From assembly GCA_000004695.1 (NCBI GenBank), contig CM000151.3, forward strand, positions 7,584,001 through 7,648,000: a stretch of DNA of 64,000 nt. The letters are read 5' to 3'. This DNA is from Dictyostelium discoideum (lineage: Eukaryota). Shown here piece by piece: positions 1,241-17,933 of this stretch (position 1 is the first letter of the stretch; every line of letters begins with the position of its first letter). The notes beneath the pieces are model-generated. The model did no database searches, was not told the origin of the DNA, and saw only the letters and a list, made by a program, of their open reading frames with translations. Made by a program: the position numbers and the translations under genes.

Positions 1241-1882
1241 ATGGCAACAATCTTTGATATTTTAAATACTCATAATAATAATAATAATTTTGAAAATTGT
1301 AAAAGACAATGCTCAACCAATAAAAGCAATAAAACGATAATTGATATACTACCATCAATGGATGTAACAATGACAAATGATAAACTAATCATTGAAACAG
1401 AGTTAGCAGGTATTTCAAAAGATCATATTGAAATTGACATTAAAGATTCAATACTCACTATTTAAGGTGAAAAGAAAAAGAATTTAAATAAACAACAACA
1501 ACAACAACAACAACAAAAACAATTAGTTATTGAAAAATCAACATCATCAACAACATCATTAGATAGAAAAGAAGATGAAGCATCAATTGAAGAGTTTGAA
1601 GATGATATTAAACCAAAATCAAAATCTGATAATACAACTGTATCTACAGCCACCACCACCACTAAAGAGAACAAAGAAGACGAAAATAAAACAAAATCAA
1701 CTGATAAAAAGTTTATTTCAGAAAGATCATTTGGTAATTTTAAAAGATATTTAGATTTAACAAAAATTTTATATCAATTAGATTTAAATTCAATCAATAC
1801 TCAATTTGAAAATGGTTTATTAACAATTACAATCAATAAGAAATTACATTATTCAAATACAATTAAAATTAATATAAATTAA
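1241..1882 (+). pseudogene. small heat-shock protein (alpha-crystallin/Hsp20 family, hspG-like) copy 1, with an in-frame TAA at 1463-1465
   Basis: ORF 1241-1465 (MATIFDIL...DIKDSILTI*) continues in the same frame after the TAA through ...[39 protein letters not shown] to a stop at 1880-1882. The alpha-crystallin-domain signature is intact (IxxxGExK ... FxRxxxLP ... NGxLxIxxPK-like). Copy 2 has CAA (Gln) where copy 1 has TAA. It is either a nonsense allele/pseudogene or a sequencing error. Confidence 0.55.
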
Positions 1883-4266: not shown

Positions 4267-4516
4267 ATGGCAACAATCTTTGATATTTTAAATACTCTTA
4301 ATAATAATAATTTTGAAAATTGTAAAAGACAATGCTCAACCAATAAAAGCAATAAAACAATTATTGATATACTACCACCAATGGATGTAACAATTACAAA
4401 TGATAAACTAATCATTGAAACAGAGTTAGCAGGTATTTCAAAAGATCAAATTGAAATTGACATTAAAGATTCAATACTCACTATTCAAGGTGAAAGAAAA
4501 GATTTAAATAAACAAC

Positions 4517-4554
<38 letters not shown>

Positions 4555-4916
4555 TTAGTTATAGAAAAATCAACATCAACATCATCAACTTTTAGATAGA
4601 AAAGAAGATGAAGCATCAATTGAAGAAGTTTGAAGATGATATTAAACCAAAATCAAAATCTGACAACAGAACTGTATCTACTACAACCACCGCTACTAAA
4701 GAGAATAAAGAAGATGAAAATAAAACAAAATCAAGTGATAAAAAGTTTATTTCAGAAAGATCATTTGGTAATTTTAAAAGATATTTAGATTTAACAAAAG
4801 TTTTATATCAATTAGATTTATATTCAATCAATACTCAATTTGAAAATGGTTTATTAACAATTACAATCAATAAGAAATTACATTATTCAAATACAATTAA
4901 AATTAATATAAATTAA
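4267..4916 (+). pseudogene. small heat-shock protein (alpha-crystallin/Hsp20, hspG-like) copy 2, two frameshifts
   Basis: ORF 4267-4599 matches copy 1, then a 4-bp insertion (catcaACTTttagatag vs catcattagatag) and an extra A (gaagaAgtttgaa) move the frame twice. The C-terminal half (…[39 protein letters not shown]) is read in ORF 4608-4916. It is about 90% nt identical to copy 1. Confidence 0.5.
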
Positions 4917-5218
4917 CCAGTGACCACTTTTATTTTCCCTTCTTTATAATTCTGGAAATACATGTACATAATAATAAATAATAATACATTTAATAAAATA
5001 ATAAAATAAATACTTTTTGTAAAAACTTTAAAATAAATATGAAATTAATTTTTTCCTTTTTATGATTTTCTTTTTAAACTCTTTGATATGTATATATAAG
5101 TAATTATGAAAAAAATTTAAATTTATTTGATATGATTTTAAGACACGTATTAATTATAAACATCAAACTACAAATAGGGTTTTTTATTATATATATAAAA
5201 AAATTGTTGAAATTTTAT

Positions 5219-7516
5219 TTATTTGTTAATTTTTTTTAACTTGTTTAAAAGAACACTTTCACCTTTTTTACGATAAATTAAAAAACCAATTGCACCAATT
5301 GCGGAAACACCAACAACACTTGCAACTACAGCGACTGGGATAACATAACTTTTTCTTCCATCTTTTGAATTACCACATTCATTTTTAAATTCTGGACTAA
5401 TTAAGACTGAGAAATCTGGATCAATGATACAAGATTCAATGCAATGTGGTAAATCTAATGAAATTGAAATTGAATCCTTACTTTCATTTTTCATTGAAGT
5501 TAATAAATATGTTGGTCTTCCGTCTGAAACTAACTTGTTTATAAATCTTCCTTCTAAAATTTTATTATTTTTTGAAATTTTAATATAATTGAAAGTAGAT
5601 TCACCATCTTTATTATTGATTGTATTAATTGATGTATCCATTTCATTACATTCATTATCATCTGAATTTATTTGATCTACTGATGAAACTAATTCTAATT
5701 TTAAAGTATTTAAGTTATTTTTGTATGAATAGTTATAAATTCCAATACTAAATTTAATTGAACCATATTGTAAATTAAATGTTTCATCTGCAAATGTATA
5801 TTCTTTACCATTTCTGTTTGTAATTTCTTCAATCTTTGAAATAATTGAGCAATTGCTTTGAATTGTTTGAGATAATGTGTAAATAATTTCATTTTTGCTG
5901 TTTGTTGAATTTGTTGTCCAATTGTTTCGAAGAGAATATGTTGCTACTATATTACCATTAAAATCAATTTCGTATAATGATTTGAAAAAGATTTGGAATT
6001 GAACTTCTTGATTTGAAATTGTTGTATTACCAGTACCTGGATCGACACCAGTATCAGTTGGTGGGTTTCCGTTATTACCTCCATCGCTATCGCTATTGCT
6101 TCCTCCGTTATTACCTCCGCCTGGATTAATGATACCACTACAATCTGCACCATTGAATCCATTATTACATTTACATTGACCATTTAAAGTATTGCATGTA
6201 CCTTGATTTGAACATTTATTTGGACATGTTTGGTTATTAATATTTAAATATTGATATTTATCATAAGAGTATGTAATGTTATTTTGAGTTACAACTACAA
6301 GCTTTACACCAAAACCTGGAGGTGCTGTACAATTTAAAACTGTTGTTGAATTATATAGTAATGGACATGGTAAATTTCCAATTGTGATTGATAGATTATT
6401 ATGAGTATCACCAAAGAAGCCAATAAAGCTTGCAACACCACCATTGGTTGTTGAAGGTATTGTTGAAGTTATATAATGGTATGGTATTAAACAAGTTGGA
6501 CCTGACCAAGAATTTTCTTTACAATTGCATTCACCTTTAGTTGTGTCACATACACCATTTGAATTACAATCTAGTGGATCACACTCAATAAATAATATTG
6601 AACAATCACTACCTCGATGAGATGAATCACAAATACATTCACCTATGGTAGTATTGCAATAACCATTACCTGAACAATCTGGAACTGAACATTCAATACC
6701 TAAGCAATCACTACCTATAAATCCTGGTAAACATTTACAAGTACCTGAACTTAAATCGCAAATTGAATTAACTCCAACTGATGTTGAACAATCATTTGGA
6801 CAAACTTGATTATTATCGAAATTTGATTCGATCTTAATATATGCTTTTACATTGAATGAATCTTTTTCAATTGAAATTATTTGTAATGGAATTGTTGAAT
6901 TTGAAATTGGTAATTGTTTACCACTTTCCATTGTACATTGTGCTCCGAAAAAGTCACTACTTGTAATTGTTGAACAATTACCTACATTTTGAATTTGAAC
7001 TTGTTGATTTGTAAATCCTAAATAACTTGAAAAATGTGTACCACTTACTTGAATTTCATTACCTGTGCTTTTAATTAAAACTGATTTTATAATTGGTGGA
7101 ATATTATAATTTGTTGGGAATGTATATGTAACATTATTTGGAGTTGTGAATAAAACTGGAAAATATTCAACATTTTTCAAATTATTATTAGCTCCTACCA
7201 TTGTTGCTGTATAATTTTTACCATTTTGATTAATAACATATGTTGTTGGATCTAATGAAATTGTTAAATTAATTTTCCATAATGTTACATCGAATCCAAT
7301 ATCATTACCAGTTACCATTACTTTATTAAATATACCATCATTAATTAATTCTACTTTTGGTCTAAATGTTGTGCATGGTGTATTTGTATTAAAGTTTGAA
7401 AACTTATTACTAGCAAATCTTGAAAACATTGATTTTTGTGTTAATTTTGAATAACTATTTACTGTTGTTACATTAAAATAACATGCAAAACAAGATGGAA
7501 CTAATCTGAATATTTG

Positions 7517-7583
<67 letters not shown>

Positions 7584-9090
7584 ATTAATAAAAATAAGAA
7601 TTATGATAATAAAGAAATAATAATTAAAACCATACCCTGTTAAATTTCCCAGTGAAACAGCTATTTCAGTTGTGCACCATGATTTATCAATTGTGCCAGT
7701 AAATTTGGTTGTTCCTGTAAAATCAAATGAACCACCAGAACCTAAAAAAGGAGGGAATTGTTCACTTTTTATTGAATTTTGAAAATTTGTTGTAATATCT
7801 GGATTAAAATTTAGATTGTTTGGGAAAACTGTTAAATAACCTCCTATAAAGGATATTTCAATATTCTTTGGAACAATTAAGGGAAATGATCCATTGATAT
7901 TAAATGATGTCCCAGGAACCAATGTAATGGATTTATAAGTGTGGTTTTTAAATAATGTTATATCAAAGAATTCCTTTGGTTTCTTGAATATTGCTGAAAC
8001 ATATATATAAGGAATAATAGAATTATCAAATATATATTGATCTAATGTAGCATTTTGATTGAATGTATCATAGATTGTTAGCATTCCTGATTGATCAGTA
8101 ATTTGTAATTTCTTTAAAAATGAAATAGTTGAGTAATCAAATCTTGGAGAAATTTTAAATGTAACACCTCTTAATTTTTTATAACTTGATAAATCTGATA
8201 TACTATTCAAAGAAATTCTAAAATTTGTTAAGATTGATGATTCATCTGAATTTGCTCCATCTGTATTTAAATAATAATAACTATCAGATGAAAACATATT
8301 TAATGAATATGTAACTTTATCTAAATACTGCATTCTAAATATTGTATTATTTAAGTCATCGCTAAATAATTCACTTAAAATTATTTATTTTTGAAAAAAT
8401 TAAAATTATTTTAATATTATATATATATATATCTATGTATTAACATATAAAACAAAAATTATATTTTACATTAATCTATATGCAGGTAGAGGTTGTGTAA
8501 TTCCACCTAATATTCCAGAAATATTTGAATACCTTACTGTATTGGCAGCTGGAAATTTGTAATATATAAAATTTGGGGTCACTTTTAAATTTTTAACTAT
8601 TCTAAAATTATTATTTAATTACTATTAATATATTTTTTGGAATTATTTTTGACTAAAAAAAAAAAAAAAAACATACAATTCATCCATTTGAGGAAAGCAA
8701 TTTACAAAATTTAATGGGTCTAATATATTATCTGTTCCACCACTATTCAAAGCTAATCTAAAAAAAAAATAAAAAAAAAAAAAAAATAAAAAATTATTAG
8801 TTAATAATTTAAAAAAATCTAATTATTATATTTTAAATAAAAAAAATGAAATAAAAATAATTAATTTACGTTTTAATATTTAGATTGGTCGTGCAAACTA
8901 TATCAGTATTAGCGGTTGTACATATATCAACATATTGGTTATTGGTATCTTTGGTGAATTTTAAAAGGTTATAATCTTGTATCAATGTTGACAAACAATT
9001 ATATTCACTCGGAATAGGATTGACTGATAAACAACCAATAAAATTTAAAAATATTAAAAAAAGTAGTAATTTAAATTTTAACGAAATCAT
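5219..9090 (-). CDS. gene A: secreted/type-I membrane protein with IPT/TIG domain, EGF-like Cys repeats, one C-terminal TM helix and a short basic tail; 5 exons, about 1152 aa
   Basis: Exons (minus): 9090..8870 (MISLKFKLLLFLIFLNFIGCLSVNPIPSEYNC..., signal peptide; donor GTAAAT), 8757..8677 (…LALNSGGTDNILDPLNFVNCFPQMDE; donor GTATGT), 8601..8470 (…IVKNLKVTPNFIYYKFPAANTVRYSNISGILGGITQPLPAYRL; donor GTAAAA), 8373..7636 (ORF 7473-8333 region; donor GTATGG), 7505..5219 (ORF 5219-7429 extended upstream to the acceptor tattcag). All phases are consistent (2/1 across every intron). Domain calls: PPIIKSVLIKSTGNEIQVSGTHF is TIG-like; CxCxxGFxGxDC repeats are EGF-like; SYVIPVAVVASVVGVSAIGAIGFLIYRKKGE is a TM helix plus stop-transfer. 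Confidence 0.75.
7521..7581. repeat. A61 homopolymer inside intron 4 of gene A
   Basis: 61 consecutive A on the + strand. The intron runs 7635..7506. Confidence 0.95.
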
Positions 9091-9643
9091 TTTATTTGTT
9101 ATATAATGAAACGAATTAAAAAAAAAAAAAAAATCAAAAAATTTAGAAAGAAACTTGCTGAAAATGTTCATTGTTTTTTTTTCTTTTTTTTTTAAAAAAT
9201 ATCTGAAAAAATCTCCTATGTTGACGTTTTGTGTATTTTTTTTTTTTTTTTTTTCTCTGAAACAAATTGTTATTTTTTTTTTTTTTTTTAAAAACCATGT
9301 GTTTTTATTAAAGTTTTTTTTTTTTTTTTTTTTTTTTAGATATTTTCTAAAAATATCTTTTTTTTTTGACGATTTTGTTTCTGATAAGGGTGATTGGATG
9401 TACAAAAAATTTAAGCATTAAATTGGTGAAAAGTAATTTTATGTGGCTCTGGTGGGTTTGTCGCCTTTTTTTTTTTTTTTACTTTTATTTTTTTATTTTC
9501 TATGAGACTACCCTTAATTAGTTTCTGATCAGGACCTTTTTTTTAAGACACGTATTAATTATAAACATCAAACTACAAATAGGGTTTTTTATTATATATA
9601 AAAAAAAATTGATGAGAAAATTAAAAAATTGTTGAAATTTTAT

Positions 9644-12600
9644 TTATTTGTTAATTTTTTTTAACTTGTTTAAAAGAACACTTTCACCTTTTTTACGATA
9701 AATTAAAAAACCAATTGCACCAATTGCGGAAACACCAACAACACTTGCAACTACAGCGACTGGGATAACATAACTTTTTCTTCCATCTTTTGAATTACCA
9801 CATTCATTTTTAAATTCTGGACTAATTAAGACTGAGAAATCTGGATCAATGATACAAGATTCAATGCAATGTGGTAAATCTAATGAAATTGAAATTGAAT
9901 CCTTACTTTCATTTTTCATTGAAGTTATTAAATATGTTGGTCTTCCGTCTGAAACTAACTTGTTTATAAATCTTCCTTCTAAAATTTTATTATTTTTTGA
10001 AATTTTAATATAGTTGAAAGTAGATTCACCATCTTTATTATTGATTGTATTAATTGATGTATCCATTTCATTACATTCATTATCATCTGAATTTATTTGA
10101 TCTACTGATGAAACTAATTCTAATTTTAAAGTATTTAAATTATTTTTGTATGAATAGTTATGAATTCCAATACTAAATTTAATTGAACCATATTGTAAAT
10201 TAAATGTTTCATCTGCAAATGTATATTCTTTACCATTTCTGTTTGTAATTTCTTCAATCTTTGAAATAATTGAGCAATTGCTTTGAATTGTTTGAGATAA
10301 TGTGTAAATAATTTCATTTTCGGTATCTGTTGAGTTTGTTGTCCAACTGTTTTGAAGAGAATATGTTGCTACTATATTACCATTAAAATCAATTTCGTAT
10401 AATGATTTGAAAAAGATTTGGAATTGAACTTCTTGATTTGAAATTGTTGTATTACCAGTACCTGGATCGACACCAGTATCAGTTGGTGGGTTTCCGTTAT
10501 TACCTCCATCGCTATCGCTATTGCTTCCTCCGTTATTACCTCCGCCTGGATTAATGATACCACTACAATCTGCACCATTGAATCCATTATTACATTTACA
10601 TTGACCATTTAAAGTATTGCATGTACCTTGATTTGAACATTTATTTGGACATGTTTGATTGTTAATATTTAAATATTGATATTTATTATAAGAGTATGTA
10701 ATGTTATTTTGAGCTACAACTACAAGCTTTACACCAAAACCTGGAGGTGCTGTACAATTTAAAACTGTTGTTGAATTATATAGTAATGGACATGGTAAAT
10801 TTCCAATTGTGATTGATAGATTATTATGAGTATCACCAAAGAAGCCAATAAAGCTTGCAACACCACCATTGGTTGTTGAAGGTATTGTTGAAGTTATATA
10901 ATGGTATGGTATTAAACAAGTTGGACCTGACCAAGAATTTTCTTTACAATTGCATTCACCTTTAATTGTATCACACACACCGTTTGAATTACAATCTACT
11001 GGATCACAATCAATATATGGTAATGAACAGTCACTACCTTGATTTGAAGGTCCACAATCACAAGTACCAGTTTGATTATTACATGTATTTAAACCACCAT
11101 TACATGCTACCCCAGTAGTCATTGGACATTCAACAAATGGTACTGAGCAATCATTTCCTTGGTGAGATGAATCACAATTACAAATACCAGTTTCATTATT
11201 ACATGTATTTAAACCACCATTGCATGGTAATCCATTAGATTCTGGACAATCAATTACTGGTAATGAGCAATCACTTCCTTGGTGAGATGAATCACAATTA
11301 CAAGTACCAGTTTGATTATTACATGTATTTAAACCACCATTACATGGCAATCCATTAGATGTTGGGCAATCAATTACTGGCAATGAGCAATCACTACCTT
11401 GATTTGAAGGTCCACAATCACAAGTACCAGTTTGATTATTACATGTATTTAAACCACCGTTACATGGTAATGAACTGAATATTGGACATGGAACCAATGG
11501 CAATGAGCAATTACTTCCTTGAAACGATGAGCTACAATTACAAGTACCAGTTTGGTTATTACATGTATTTAAACCACCGTTACATGGTAATCCACTAACT
11601 ATTGGGCATTCAATCAATGGTAATGAGCAATCACTTCCTTGGTGAGATGAATCACAACCACAAGTACCAGTTTGATTATTACAAGTGTTTAGACCGCCGT
11701 TACATGGTAATCCACTAACAATTGGGCATTCAATCAATGGTAATGAGCAATCATTTCCTTGGTGAGATGAATCACAACCACAAGTACCAGTTTTATTATT
11801 ACAAGTGTTTAAACCACCGTTACATGGTAATCCACTAACTATTGGGCATTCAATCAATGGTAATGAGCAATCATTTCCTTGGTGAGATGAATCACAAGTA
11901 CAAATACCAGTTTGATTATTACAAGTATTTGAGCCGCCATTACATGGTAAAGAGCCATAAATTGGACAAGGAATGAGTGGTAATAAACAATCGCTACCTT
12001 GATAAGATGAATTACAAATACATTCACCTATGGTATAATCACAATGACCATTACCTGAACAATCTGGAACTGAACATTCAATACCTAAACAATCACTACC
12101 AACAAATCCTGGTAAACATTTACAAGCACCTGAACTTAAATCGCAAATTGAATTAACTCCAACTGATGTTGAACAATCATTTGGACAAACTTGATTATTA
12201 TCGAAATTTGATTCGATCTTAATATATGCTTTTACATTGAATGAATCTTTTTCAATTGAAATTATTTGTAATGGAATTGTTGAATTTGAAATTGGTAATT
12301 GTTTACCACTTTCCATTGTACATTGTGCTCCGAAAAAGTCACTACTTGTAATTGTTGAACAATTACCTACATTTTGAATTTGAACTTGTTGATTTGTAAA
12401 TCCTAAATAACTTGAAAAATGTGTACCACTTACTTGAATTTCATTACCTGTGCTTTTAATTAAAACTGATTTTATAATTGGTGGAATATTATAATTTGTT
12501 GGGAATGTATATGTAACATTATTTGGAGTTGTGAATAAAACTGGAAAATATTCAACATTTTTCAAATTATTATTAGCTCCTACCATTGTTGCTGTATAAT

Positions 12601-14450
12601 TTTTACCATTTTGATTAATAACATATGTTGTTGGATCTAATGAAATTGTTAAATTAATTTTCCATAATGTTACATCGAATCCAATATCATTACCAGTTAC
12701 CATTACTTTATTAAATATACCATCATTAATTAATTCTACTTTTGGTCTAAATGTTGTGCATGGTGTTTTTGTATTAAAGTTTGAAAACTTATTACCAGAA
12801 AATCTTGTCAACATTGATTTTTGTGTTAATTTTGAATAACTATTTATCGTTGTTACATTAAAATAACACGCAAAACAAGATGGAATTAATCTAAATTTTT
12901 AAATTAATAAAAAAAAATAAAGATTAGTAAGTAATTTGAATAAATAAATAATTTATAATCAACATACCCTGTTAAATTTCCAGTTGGGACAGATAGTTCA
13001 GTTGTGCACCATGAATTATCAACTGTACCAACAAAAAGATTTGGAGAATTTGTAAAATAATATGAACCACCAGAACCTAGAAATTTTGTGGGGAATTGTG
13101 TATTTTTTATTGAATTAAAGAAGGAAACTGTAGAATATGGACCCATATTAAGGTTATTTGGAAAAACCGTCAAGTTACCTGATAAAAAATTAAAATCACA
13201 ACTCTCTGGAGGAATTATTGGGAGTGCCCCATTCAAATGATAAAGATTTCCTGGAAAAAGGGTAATTGCTGTATAGGTGTGATTAACGAATGATGACATA
13301 TCATAATATTCAGTTGGTGCATCAAGTGTCGCACTTAGATAAAATTTTGATACTTTTGAATTGTCAAATAAATATTGATTAATTTGTCCAAGAGCACGGT
13401 ATATTGATAATTGATTGGATGATATTGTTTTCATAAAATTAATAGTTGAAAAATCAAATATTAGAGAAAATTGTAAATTTATATTGTTTAATTTGTACAT
13501 TGAAAAAGATACTATGTTATGTACATTGGCATAAAAATTCCCTAATACTGAGGTTCCAGATGGATTTGCGCCATCAGAGTTTAGATAAACATATACATTA
13601 GCAGGAGAAATGTCCAAATTATATATTCCACTATTAATATGCTCCAATCTCAATGTTGTACCATTTAAATCATTTGAATGTATAGTCCTTTTTATTTTTA
13701 AAATAAAAAAAAATAAAAAAAATAAAAAAAATAAAAAAATAAATAAATGAATAAAATTTATGTAAGAAATAAGAATTAGATTTTAGTTTTTTTTTTTTTT
13801 TTGTTTTTTTTTTTTTTATAGAAAATAAATATTTACAAGGATCTAATTGAAGGTAAAGGTTGAGTAATTCCACCTACCACTCCATTAATATTGATATACT
13901 TTGCTATTTGGACACTGGATATTTTTGTATATATAAAATCTGGTGATACTTTTAAATTATTAACCGTTCTTTAATAATAATAATTTTCAATTTTTTAGTA
14001 AATAATTTTGTTGAGAAAAAAAAAAAAAAAAAATTTAAAATACTTACAATTCCACCATCAGAGTAAAACAGGTTGAGAAATTAGATGGAAATAATATATT
14101 ATTTGTACCACCAGGTATTAAAAACCATCCTAAAAATAAAAAAATAAAAAAATAAAAATTTAATATTTATTAGTTTTGATATTAAATTAAAAAAAAAAAT
14201 TAAAAAATTAAAAAATTAAAATTAAACTTATTTCTTTTGAATATAAATTCCCAGAACAAGAAATATCAATTGTGGTGGTTGACAAATGTTTGAATAAAAA
14301 TCGAATGTGTCTTTTGTGAAATTTGGTAGAATAAAAATTTCATTTAAATAACCAACACGTATATTCATCTGGAACAAGAGGGGGGACTTGAGAATAACAC
14401 CCGACAATTATTAAAAATATAAAAAAAAGTTGAGATTTAATTAAAACCAT
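9644..14450 (-). CDS. gene B: tandem paralog of gene A (IPT/TIG + EGF-like repeat type-I membrane protein) with an expanded Cys-repeat array; 5' exon 1 appears decayed
   Basis: Exons (minus): 12890..9644 (1082 codons; ORF 9644-12814 extended to the acceptor aaatttag), 13687..12968 (donor GTATGT), 13968..13837 (…TVNNLKVSPDFIYTKISSVQIAKYININGVVGGITQPLPSIRSL; donor GTAAAT), 14129..14048 (GWFLIPGGTNNILFPSNFSTCFTLMVE; donor GTAAGT). Putative exon 1 is 14450..about 14235 (MVLIKSQLFFIFLIIVGCYSQVPPLVPDEYTCW...). Exon 1 has an in-frame TGA, a frameshift relative to gene A, no recognisable GT donor (GAAATAAGTTTAA where A has CGTAAATTAAT), and a phase mismatch with exon 2 (82 nt vs 81 nt in A). Confidence 0.6.
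11000..12000 (-). repeat. in-frame 120-bp (40-aa) tandem repeat array, about 8 copies, encoding CDSSHQG(N/S)DCSLPLIECPIVSGLPCNGGLNTCNNQTGTC units
   Basis: Consecutive copies are 90-100% identical at the nt level (e.g. 11161-11280 vs 11281-11400). The array is absent from gene A, which jumps from CICDSSHRGSDCSILFIECDPLDCNSNG directly to the shared C-terminal region. Confidence 0.85.
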
Positions 14451-14465
14451 TTTTTTTAATTATTG

Positions 14466-14517
<52 letters not shown>

Positions 14518-16197
14518 TAAAAAAAAAAAAAAAAAAAACCTTTCTAATATTCAGATGACTTTTTAATATTGATTAAAAAAAAAAAAAAAAAAAAAAAACC
14601 TGTTACATTGGGATGACGAAAAAAAAAAAAAAATAAAAAAAAAATAAAATTAATTGGTGAAGTGTTGTCTGGTTTTTGAATGGTTGGTTTTTAAAAAAAA
14701 ACGAAGAAAAATGCATTTTTTTTTATTAAATGTCAAAATATCTTTAAAAATATCTTTTTTTCATTTGATTTCGTCGATGATGTTTTGATTTTTTTTTTTT
14801 GTGCGTCAAAACGATCGTTCTTTTTTTTTTCCAAGCATTTCATAGAACGATTGTTTTTGTAAATTGGTATTTTTTTTTTTTTATTTTATTTTAAACGAAT
14901 ATGAACCAGTTTAAAAATTTCCTTTGATACCACCTGTTGACTGTTGTTTTTTTTTTTAAAAAAAAAAAAGATATTTTTTTTTTTCCATTATTTTCAATAT
15001 TAATTCTTAAAATATTTTTTTTTTTTTTTTTTTTTTTATTATTATTGAAAACTAAATAAAAGAGTATTTAATTTTTGGGGGAAACTTATATTTTTTTTTT
15101 TTTTTTTTTTTTTTTCCAAACAAAAATATTTTTTCCTAAAAAATCAAAAATTTTTAATAATTTGAAAATTTCCCCAAATTTTTTTTTTACAAATTTCCCG
15201 GGGGAAAAACCAAAGTATAACAATTTTTCGGGTATAGTATGGGGAGTTCCCCAAACTTTCCCCCCAATTAAATTTTTCCTAGTAAATCCTTTTTTCTAAA
15301 AAAAAAAAAAAAACCCAAAATTTTGCTTTGGGAAATTAATTTTTTAAAAAGTTTTATTTTAGTATCACTATTATTTTTAAGTTTTCTAAACAAAAGGGTT
15401 GTATTTTTATCCTTTTTAAAAATATTGGTTTTTTTTTTTTTTTTTTTTTTTTTTGATCAAATTTTTTTTTTTCTTGTTTTTTTAACCAAAAAAAAAAATA
15501 AAAAAAAAAAAATAAAAAATAAAAAATAAAAAAAATGGATTTTTTTTTTTTTAATTAAAATCTTTTTAAATTGATTCAACTTATTGCTTGGTGATTAAAT
15601 TAGATTATTTCGCAATTATTTTCTAGTATTGAAAATTAATTTTAATTTTTTATACTTTTTAAAAAAAAACAAAAAAAAAAAAAATAAATTAAAATTATTT
15701 TCAATTGATTTTTGGGGGTATAAATATCTTTTTTTAATTAGACACACATTTCAAAACATAAATGGCATCTTAAAAAAAAAAAAATAATAAAAATAATAAA
15801 AAAAATAAAACTCTAATTCGCAATAATCCTCCTATTTCAATATTAATATAACATAATAATACAAGCTTATTTTTAGTTTTTTTAATATAACCTTAGTAAT
15901 AAAAAAAAAAAAAAGATATTTTTAATAAAAAAAAAATCTAAATTTATTTTTTTATTTTTTTTATTTATTTTTTTATTTTTTAAAGGTGGGTCTGTTAATT
16001 TTTTTTTTTTTTTGAAAATAATTAAACAATAAAAACACTTTTTTTTATTTTTTATTTTTTTTAAATTAATTACAACAAAAAAAAATAAAAAATAAAAAAA
16101 AAAAAAAAAGAAAAATTCGAACCCCTTTTATCTTTTGAAAGTAAATTAAAAAAAAAAAGTGTTTATTTTTAACTATAGCATTAACCTTTTTTAAAAA

Positions 16198-17898: not shown

Positions 17899-17933
<35 letters not shown>

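Follow-up and report, generated by a model that had tools for sequence, protein, structure and literature searches.

The apparent decay of gene B (DDB_G0277127), a ComC-family gene of Dictyostelium discoideum, is very probably a sequence error in the AX4 chromosome 2 reference, and comparison with other assemblies points to an intact gene of five exons. The lesions that break its first exon in the window, the 64,000-nt stretch of the reference analysed here, are absent from a near-isogenic second assembly that is otherwise identical to the window across the whole of gene B. The first-pass annotation had offered sequence errors in an A/T-rich stretch as the third of its explanations, and it is this one that the intact exon 1 in four other assemblies bears out. 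Its suggestion of a young pseudogene with a 3' part preserved through conversion from gene A is not supported, as the lesions are private to one assembly, extend over ~250 nt only and carry a technical signature.

Gene B and its tandem paralogue

Genes A and B are tandem paralogues of the ComC family on the minus strand of the window (Table 1). Gene A is DDB_G0276959, and its spliced model is identical to XP_642990.1. In both genes Pfam detects LRR_ComC (PF24141), two ComC beta-sandwiches (PF24142 and PF24143), EGF repeats and ComC_SSD (PF22933), all above the gathering score, with 266-268 bits for ComC_SSD, 115-148 for LRR_ComC and 83-87 for the beta-sandwiches. The full domain set of the family is thus present in each, together with a signal peptide and a C-terminal transmembrane segment, and the corrected gene B shows nothing out of the ordinary for a ComC protein. 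Gene B differs from gene A in having eight additional EGF-like repeats of 40 aa; its exon 5 holds the array of eight 120-nt repeats (10897-12036), the ComC_SSD domain and the transmembrane segment, while exon 1 codes for the signal peptide and an N-terminal segment with cysteine. The 3' halves of the two genes are 97-100% identical, and, as far as can be read from the sequences, the genes probably exchange sequence there. A literature search on the identifiers of gene A and gene B gave no match. The window as a whole has a G+C content of ~20%, with poly-A/T tracts and short AT-rich introns.

Table 1. Features of genes A and B and of the low-quality patches, in window positions. L001 to L004 are the four other assemblies compared.
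Feature	Position	Strand	Remarks
Gene B, ATG to stop	9644..14450	-	EGF-repeat type I membrane protein, ComC-family
Gene B exon 1 in the window	14235..14450	-	216 nt, versus 218 nt intact; alignment with L001-L004
Gene B exon 2	14048..14129	-	82 nt in the window
Gene B exon 3	13837..13968	-	132 nt
Gene B exon 4	12968..13687	-	720 nt
Gene B exon 5	9644..12890	-	3247 nt
In-frame TGA, codon 37	14340..14342	-	
Exon 1 donor position	14233..14234	-	GA in the window; GT (GTAATT) in 4/4 other assemblies
Annotated exon 1	14450-14353	-	98 nt, donor GTTATT
Annotated mini-exon	14129-14109	-	21 nt, donor GTACAA
Annotated acceptor within exon 3	13914	-	first 54 nt of exon 3 dropped
Patch of assembly-private differences	14114..14359	.	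23 substitutions and 6 indel positions versus L001
Second, larger low-quality patch	15000..15520	.	intergenic, 600 nt upstream; 48 substitutions and 7 indel positions
Gene A, intact tandem paralogue (comparator)	5219..9090	-	5 exons, 1152 aa
Gene A exons	9090-8870, 8757-8677, 8601-8470, 8373-7636, 7505-5219	-	exon 1, 221 nt; exon 2, 81 nt

Lesions in the reference and the annotated model

Exons 2-5 of gene B are all open, as the first-pass annotation had stated, and amount to 1392 codons; the translation of the window is identical to that of an intact orthologue (P0003, the 1465-aa product of L001) at residues 79-1465. The damage lies at the 5' end. Translation from the ATG at 14450 gives MVLIKSQLFFIFLIIVGCYSQVPPLVPDEYTCWLFK before it meets a TGA, so that the in-frame stop described earlier after DEYTCWLFK is indeed present in the deposited sequence. 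This stop is not a nonsense substitution, as it is exposed because 2 nt have been lost upstream, at ~14359. The frame of exon 1 had further been said to be shifted once, by 1 nt, in mid-exon. Disruption of the frame is confirmed, but there is no single 1-nt shift: at least two frame changes take the reading from frame 1 to frame 2 and back to frame 1, and alignment with the intact orthologues shows 2 nt missing from the window at ~14359, 1 nt missing at ~14270 and a surplus T at ~14246. The gene A-like reading continues in frame 2 (NFTKDTFDFYSNIC in gene B versus KFTKDTNNQYVDIC in gene A), and frame 1 is regained before the exon ends.

The loss of the GTAAAT donor was likewise seen correctly, with AAAC/GTAAAT in gene A (the slash marks the exon boundary) against AAAG-AAATAAG in gene B; the donor site of the window reads GAAATA (14234-14229), that of the orthologues GTAATT. 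Exon 2 does measure 82 nt, compared with 81 nt in gene A, because it holds one additional C at 14114/14115, which displaces the frame of its first 15 nt and gives WFLIP in the window where the true reading is MVFNT. The reported mismatch between the phases of exons 1 and 2, on the other hand, can be reconciled through a weak donor, A/GTTTAA (exon 1 14450-14228, 223 nt). With this donor at 14227 the ATG frame spans five exons and 1467 codons, and the TGA is its sole interruption. We regard this donor as a coincidence, since the donor of the orthologues lies 7 nt upstream and their exon 2 has 81 nt. Splicing within exon 1 offers no way around the stop: a 42-nt GT...AG "intron" that removes the TGA is too short and lies inside coding sequence homologous to gene A, and among the GT positions of exon 1 upstream of the TGA, all of which we enumerated, those compatible in phase (14398 and 14356) create a T/GA stop at the junction.

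The annotated gene B protein (XP_642991.1 / Q550E1) has 1387 aa and starts MVLIKSQLFFIFLIIVGCYSQVPPLVPDEYTCW-MVFNTW-CVQIAKY. The window reproduces XP_642991.1 exactly with the annotated splicing, which a brute-force junction search over the window recovered; its junctions are GT-AG and include 14353/14129 and 14109/13914. This exact match identifies the window as AX4 reference sequence. With gene B intron 1 set aside, genes A and B have seven introns, whose donors are of GTA type (GTAAAT, GTATGT, GTAAAA, GTATGG and GTAAGT). Pfam LRR_ComC covers residues 3-285 of the intact protein (135 bits) and 40-285 of the AX4 model (115 bits). The AX4 model of gene B splices round both the stop and the frameshifts, at the cost of 78 of the 1465 residues.

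Differences between assemblies and their error signature

The near-isogenic assembly (L001, GCA_054883475.1) is a second D. discoideum assembly, which we reached via the gene A protein. Over 19.1 kb it shares 99.28% identity with the window, and the 137 differing columns are unevenly spread, with 29 in 14114-14359, 54 in 15000-15500 and none in 9500-14000. Nearly all remaining differences are changes in poly-T length, together with a small cluster of indels at 4495-4626, and isolated substitutions outside the patches number six in ~18.3 kb; against this background, 23 substitutions in 271 nt have a Poisson probability of ~2e-47. The patch in gene B takes in the greater part of exon 1, then intron 1 and the first bases of exon 2. 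L001 has an open exon 1 of 218 nt, an AA/GTAATT donor and an 81-nt exon 2; its gene B occupies nearly the same interval as in the window and yields a product of 1465 aa, and the intron phases are those of gene A (221 and 81 nt). Exon 1 of L001 translates as MVLIKSQLFFIFLIIVGCYSQVPPLVPDEYNCFVNLIENFNLTKFTKDTFGFYSNICQTTQTDITCSGNYISK, and exon 2 begins (K)MVFNTGGTNN. At the damaged sites L001 has AACTGTTTTGTTAATTTAATTG at ~14359, AAAGTAATTAG at the donor and AATACTGG in exon 2, and the correct transcript would join the two exons at ...GGGAATTATATTTCAAA/GATGGTTTTTAATACTGG. A corrected sequence restoring frame and donor, which the first-pass annotation had listed as evidence against its own reading, is therefore present in this assembly. 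Taken together, the alignments read gene B as a gene of five exons that encodes 1465 aa.

The laboratory strains AX4 and AX2 both descend from NC4, and we infer that L001 is a laboratory strain of NC4 lineage such as AX2-214. The new assemblies probably derive from a study that covered AX2-214 and nine wild isolates, possible cryptic species included, with Nanopore plus Illumina sequencing (Holland et al, 2025; PMC12745789, PRJNA1300491).

The diverged assemblies, one of D. discoideum (L002) and two of D. cf. discoideum (L003 and L004), agree with L001 in structure. Exon 1 is open in each and is followed by a GTAATT donor, and exon 2 has 81 nt (78 nt in L002, through an in-frame 3-nt deletion); the gene B products have 1522, 1462 and 1465 aa in L002, L003 and L004, respectively. 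Gene B has the same start codon and the same exon 1 in all four other assemblies. The window and L001 differ at 32 columns, for which the three diverged assemblies supply 96 calls; 86 of these equal L001 and six equal the window, and gene A too matches L001 at many of these columns. Among the four intact orthologues the dN/dS ratios of exons 1-2 are 0.45-0.74, and cysteines and splice sites are kept. Error would not give four independent assemblies an open frame, a canonical donor and phases like those of the paralogue, which makes the window the deviant version.

How do the differences in the patches look in themselves? In the exon patch, 21 of the 23 substitutions copy the neighbouring base (8.7 expected), and transitions to transversions stand at 4:22, versus 12:14 to 19:23 for real differences between strains. 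The copying is symmetrical, however, with 21/23 in the forward and 19/23 in the reverse direction, and consists mostly of shifts at run boundaries. The direction of the error in the exon patch is therefore taken from the outgroup assemblies and from the integrity of the reading frame and splice sites, not from the signature alone. The upstream patch is directional: a neighbour is copied in each of the 48 substitutions (20.7 expected), compared with three of 48 in reverse, and homopolymer runs lengthen from a mean of 1.66 to one of 2.56. Examples, from L001 to the window, are GGAGGTAATGTTTGAGTAAC to GGGGGGAAAGTTTGGGGAAC and TGTATATATAAAATCTGGTGAT to TGTAAAAAAAAAATTTGGGGAAAT. This neighbour-copying in the upstream patch is a base-calling artefact. 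A third patch, at 4495-4626, falls in an HSP20-like gene (4267-4916, plus strand), which is split over three frames in the window and forms an intact 216-aa open reading frame in L001.

We infer from these patterns that read quality is the cause of the patch in gene B. In this proposal, ~250 nt of the reference (14114-14359) would have been assembled from poor-quality sequence, in which miscalls mostly repeated the neighbouring base and insertions or deletions of one and two bases were added. The errors would comprise two frame shifts that expose the TGA, a donor changed from GT to GA, an additional T in exon 1 and an additional C in exon 2. The gene predictor would then have spliced round the damage, giving the 1387-aa annotated protein.

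Alternative readings and significance

Could the lesions be real and confined to AX4? Ectopic conversion from a decayed paralogue or a local mutational burst would then have left gene B as a pseudogene of very recent origin or as a gene with an altered N-terminus, which we consider unlikely. The defects do occur in the deposited sequence, and L001 may be another laboratory strain and not AX4; yet the six isolated substitutions in the rest of the 19.1 kb indicate one shared haplotype. Strains of D. discoideum do differ unusually strongly in the ComC 5' region (8.4% between two assemblies), but a divergence of ~12% within 250 nt and none in the adjoining 4.5 kb is unlike decay. Signs of conversion are seen in the 3' halves of genes A and B, whereas the states specific to the window are absent from gene A and occur consistently in no other haplotype; two adjacent discrepant bases (14239-14238, n=2) match one D. 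cf. discoideum assembly. The excess of transversions and the neighbour-copying pattern are, moreover, technical and not mutational in character, and the window has two more patches of the same kind, one of them intergenic with its 48/48 signature. A conversion donor sought within the window was not found there, and it seems improbable that the patch stems from templated conversion by an unseen decayed ComC paralogue or from localised mutation during derivation of the axenic strain. If this were true, AX2 and wild strains would have a normal DDB_G0277127 protein and AX4 would not, a loss confined to one strain within a cell-surface gene family that has links to cell-cell signalling in development.

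Two further readings take issue with the gene model or with the other assemblies. The sequence may be correct and the gene expressed through the annotated splicing or through an unrecognised upstream first exon or promoter, and we hold this to be very unlikely. The annotated donors GTTATT and GTACAA are unlike the GTA[AT][AG][TAG] of the seven other introns, conserved residues and 37 LRR_ComC positions are deleted, and no other assembly needs this splicing, even though the model has formal GT-AG junctions, an open 1387-aa product and its signal peptide. The alternative first exon or promoter that had been proposed finds no counterpart in the other assemblies, all of which use the 14450 ATG and the same exon 1. 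A search for an upstream ATG exon, suggested for 14460-15000 and extended here to 16200, returned a single ATG...GTA candidate, at 14716-14607 (donor GTAACA), which was rejected because its translation is that of a poly-T tract and looks nothing like the N-terminus of a ComC protein. It is hardly conceivable that polishing or consensus artefacts have corrupted all four other assemblies and that the window alone is correct, or that the TGA is recoded by selenocysteine or programmed frameshifting. Homopolymer errors do exist in Nanopore assemblies, such as the poly-T lengths at 7521-7550, but nothing further speaks for either case. Such artefacts would have had to yield, in four independent assemblies, not only the open frame, canonical donor and paralogue-like phases but also a higher similarity to gene A. 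Recoding was dismissed as well, as the lost donor and the second, third and fourth indels would stay unrepaired.

An error in the reference, the reading we prefer, would place gene B beside known cases. Errors in the AX4 genome with compensating wrong gene models have been described for clcD/DDB_G0278639 and DDB_G0279477, with at least 104 further suspect genes (Singh et al, 2017, BMC Genomics; PMC5282741). These cases resemble gene B in that AX4 sequence errors break the reading frame, the compensating splicing is implausible and conserved protein sequence is lost. They differ in how the splicing compensates, through introns of <5 bp as opposed to a 21-nt mini-exon and weak donors, and in the damage, which is one or two isolated base errors there but dense in gene B, with ~29-32 positions and a destroyed donor. 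The evidence differs too, being RNA-seq in Singh et al and comparative genomics here. The text and supplements of Singh et al make no mention of gene B. Viewed from the window alone, gene B also looks like a young unitary or duplicated pseudogene, with a stop, frameshifts and a lost donor in exon 1 and the rest open; unlike such a pseudogene, its lesions are absent from L001 and other strains, sit in one patch and bear a base-calling signature.

The 64-kb window contains at least two low-quality patches besides the one in gene B, of which one breaks the HSP20-like gene, and apparent pseudogenes, odd mini-exons and weak splice sites in this part of AX4 chromosome 2 therefore call for comparison with the newer long-read assemblies before any interpretation. 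For genome scans, this means that a "young pseudogene beside an intact paralogue" can be an assembly artefact. In terms of curation, the RefSeq/UniProt entry of DDB_G0277127 (XP_642991.1 / Q550E1) would be amended from 1387 to 1465 aa. The corrected product would have its N-terminal cysteine-containing segment intact and its LRR_ComC domain complete. The biological interest of the apparent decay is accordingly low, and gene B would count as an ordinary intact member of the ComC family.

Discrepancies between the window and a near-isogenic assembly

The patch upstream of gene B (DDB_G0277127) differs from its counterpart in the near-isogenic assembly (GCA_054883475.1; locus L001) by 48 substitutions and 7 indel positions. 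All 48 substitutions copy a neighbouring base, and runs in the window are longer on average (2.56, against 1.66 in L001). These differences are a textbook low-quality-read artefact of the reference. Further reference error probably also accounts for the lesions at 4495-4626, distorting or removing the model of a small HSP20-like gene: 8 clustered indel or substitution differences leave this gene spread over three reading frames in the window, whereas its L001 counterpart (14145-14795, minus strand) is an intact 216-aa ORF. The two poly-T differences are homopolymer-length discrepancies in which either assembly may be correct.

The HSP20-like paralogous copy carries an in-frame stop (...DSILTI*GEKK...). 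The window and L001 show zero differences across it and, because they agree there, the stop looks real. The L001 gene caller reports a 194-aa product, which presumably bypasses the stop; the copy could be a true pseudogene, or an intron could have been called wrongly.

Features of the window, with differences relative to the near-isogenic assembly
Feature	Position	Strand	Description
HSP20-like paralogous copy	1241-1882	+	94% identical to copy at 4267-4916
Small HSP20-like gene	4267-4916	+	lesions at 4495-4626
Poly-T tract	7521-7550		gene A intron 4; 30 nt longer in window
EGF-like Cys-rich repeat array, gene B	10897-12036		eight units of 120 nt (40 aa)
Low-quality patch	15000-15520		intergenic, upstream of gene B
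Poly-T tract	17902-17907		6 nt longer in window

Identity between genes A and B

Identity between gene A (DDB_G0276959; 5195-9090 in this comparison) and gene B (9620-14450) rises steeply from 5' to 3', from ~60-70% in exons 1-3 through ~85% in mid-gene to 96.9% over the final 1.5 kb. It reaches 100% over the 300 nt that contain the stop codon and 3' flank of the two genes (5195-5494 and 9620-9919). Such a gradient suggests that two functional paralogues have undergone gene conversion with each other or share a recent partial duplication.

Variation of gene B among strains

The EGF-like array of gene B, whose units are 79-85% identical to one another, is absent from gene A. The number of these repeats may vary among strains, as suggested by the length of the gene B orthologue in a second, diverged D. 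discoideum assembly (locus L002), which is 1522 aa vs 1465 aa.

From exon 1 to exon 2 of gene B, the two assemblies differ by 8.4% (L001:4640-5050 vs L002:4285-4700); nucleotide diversity across the species is far lower, with a quoted mean of ~0.003 (bioRxiv 10.1101/2025.10.22.684067). Because dN/dS over this region is 0.45-0.74, this ComC paralogue appears to have an N-terminus that evolves fast between strains.
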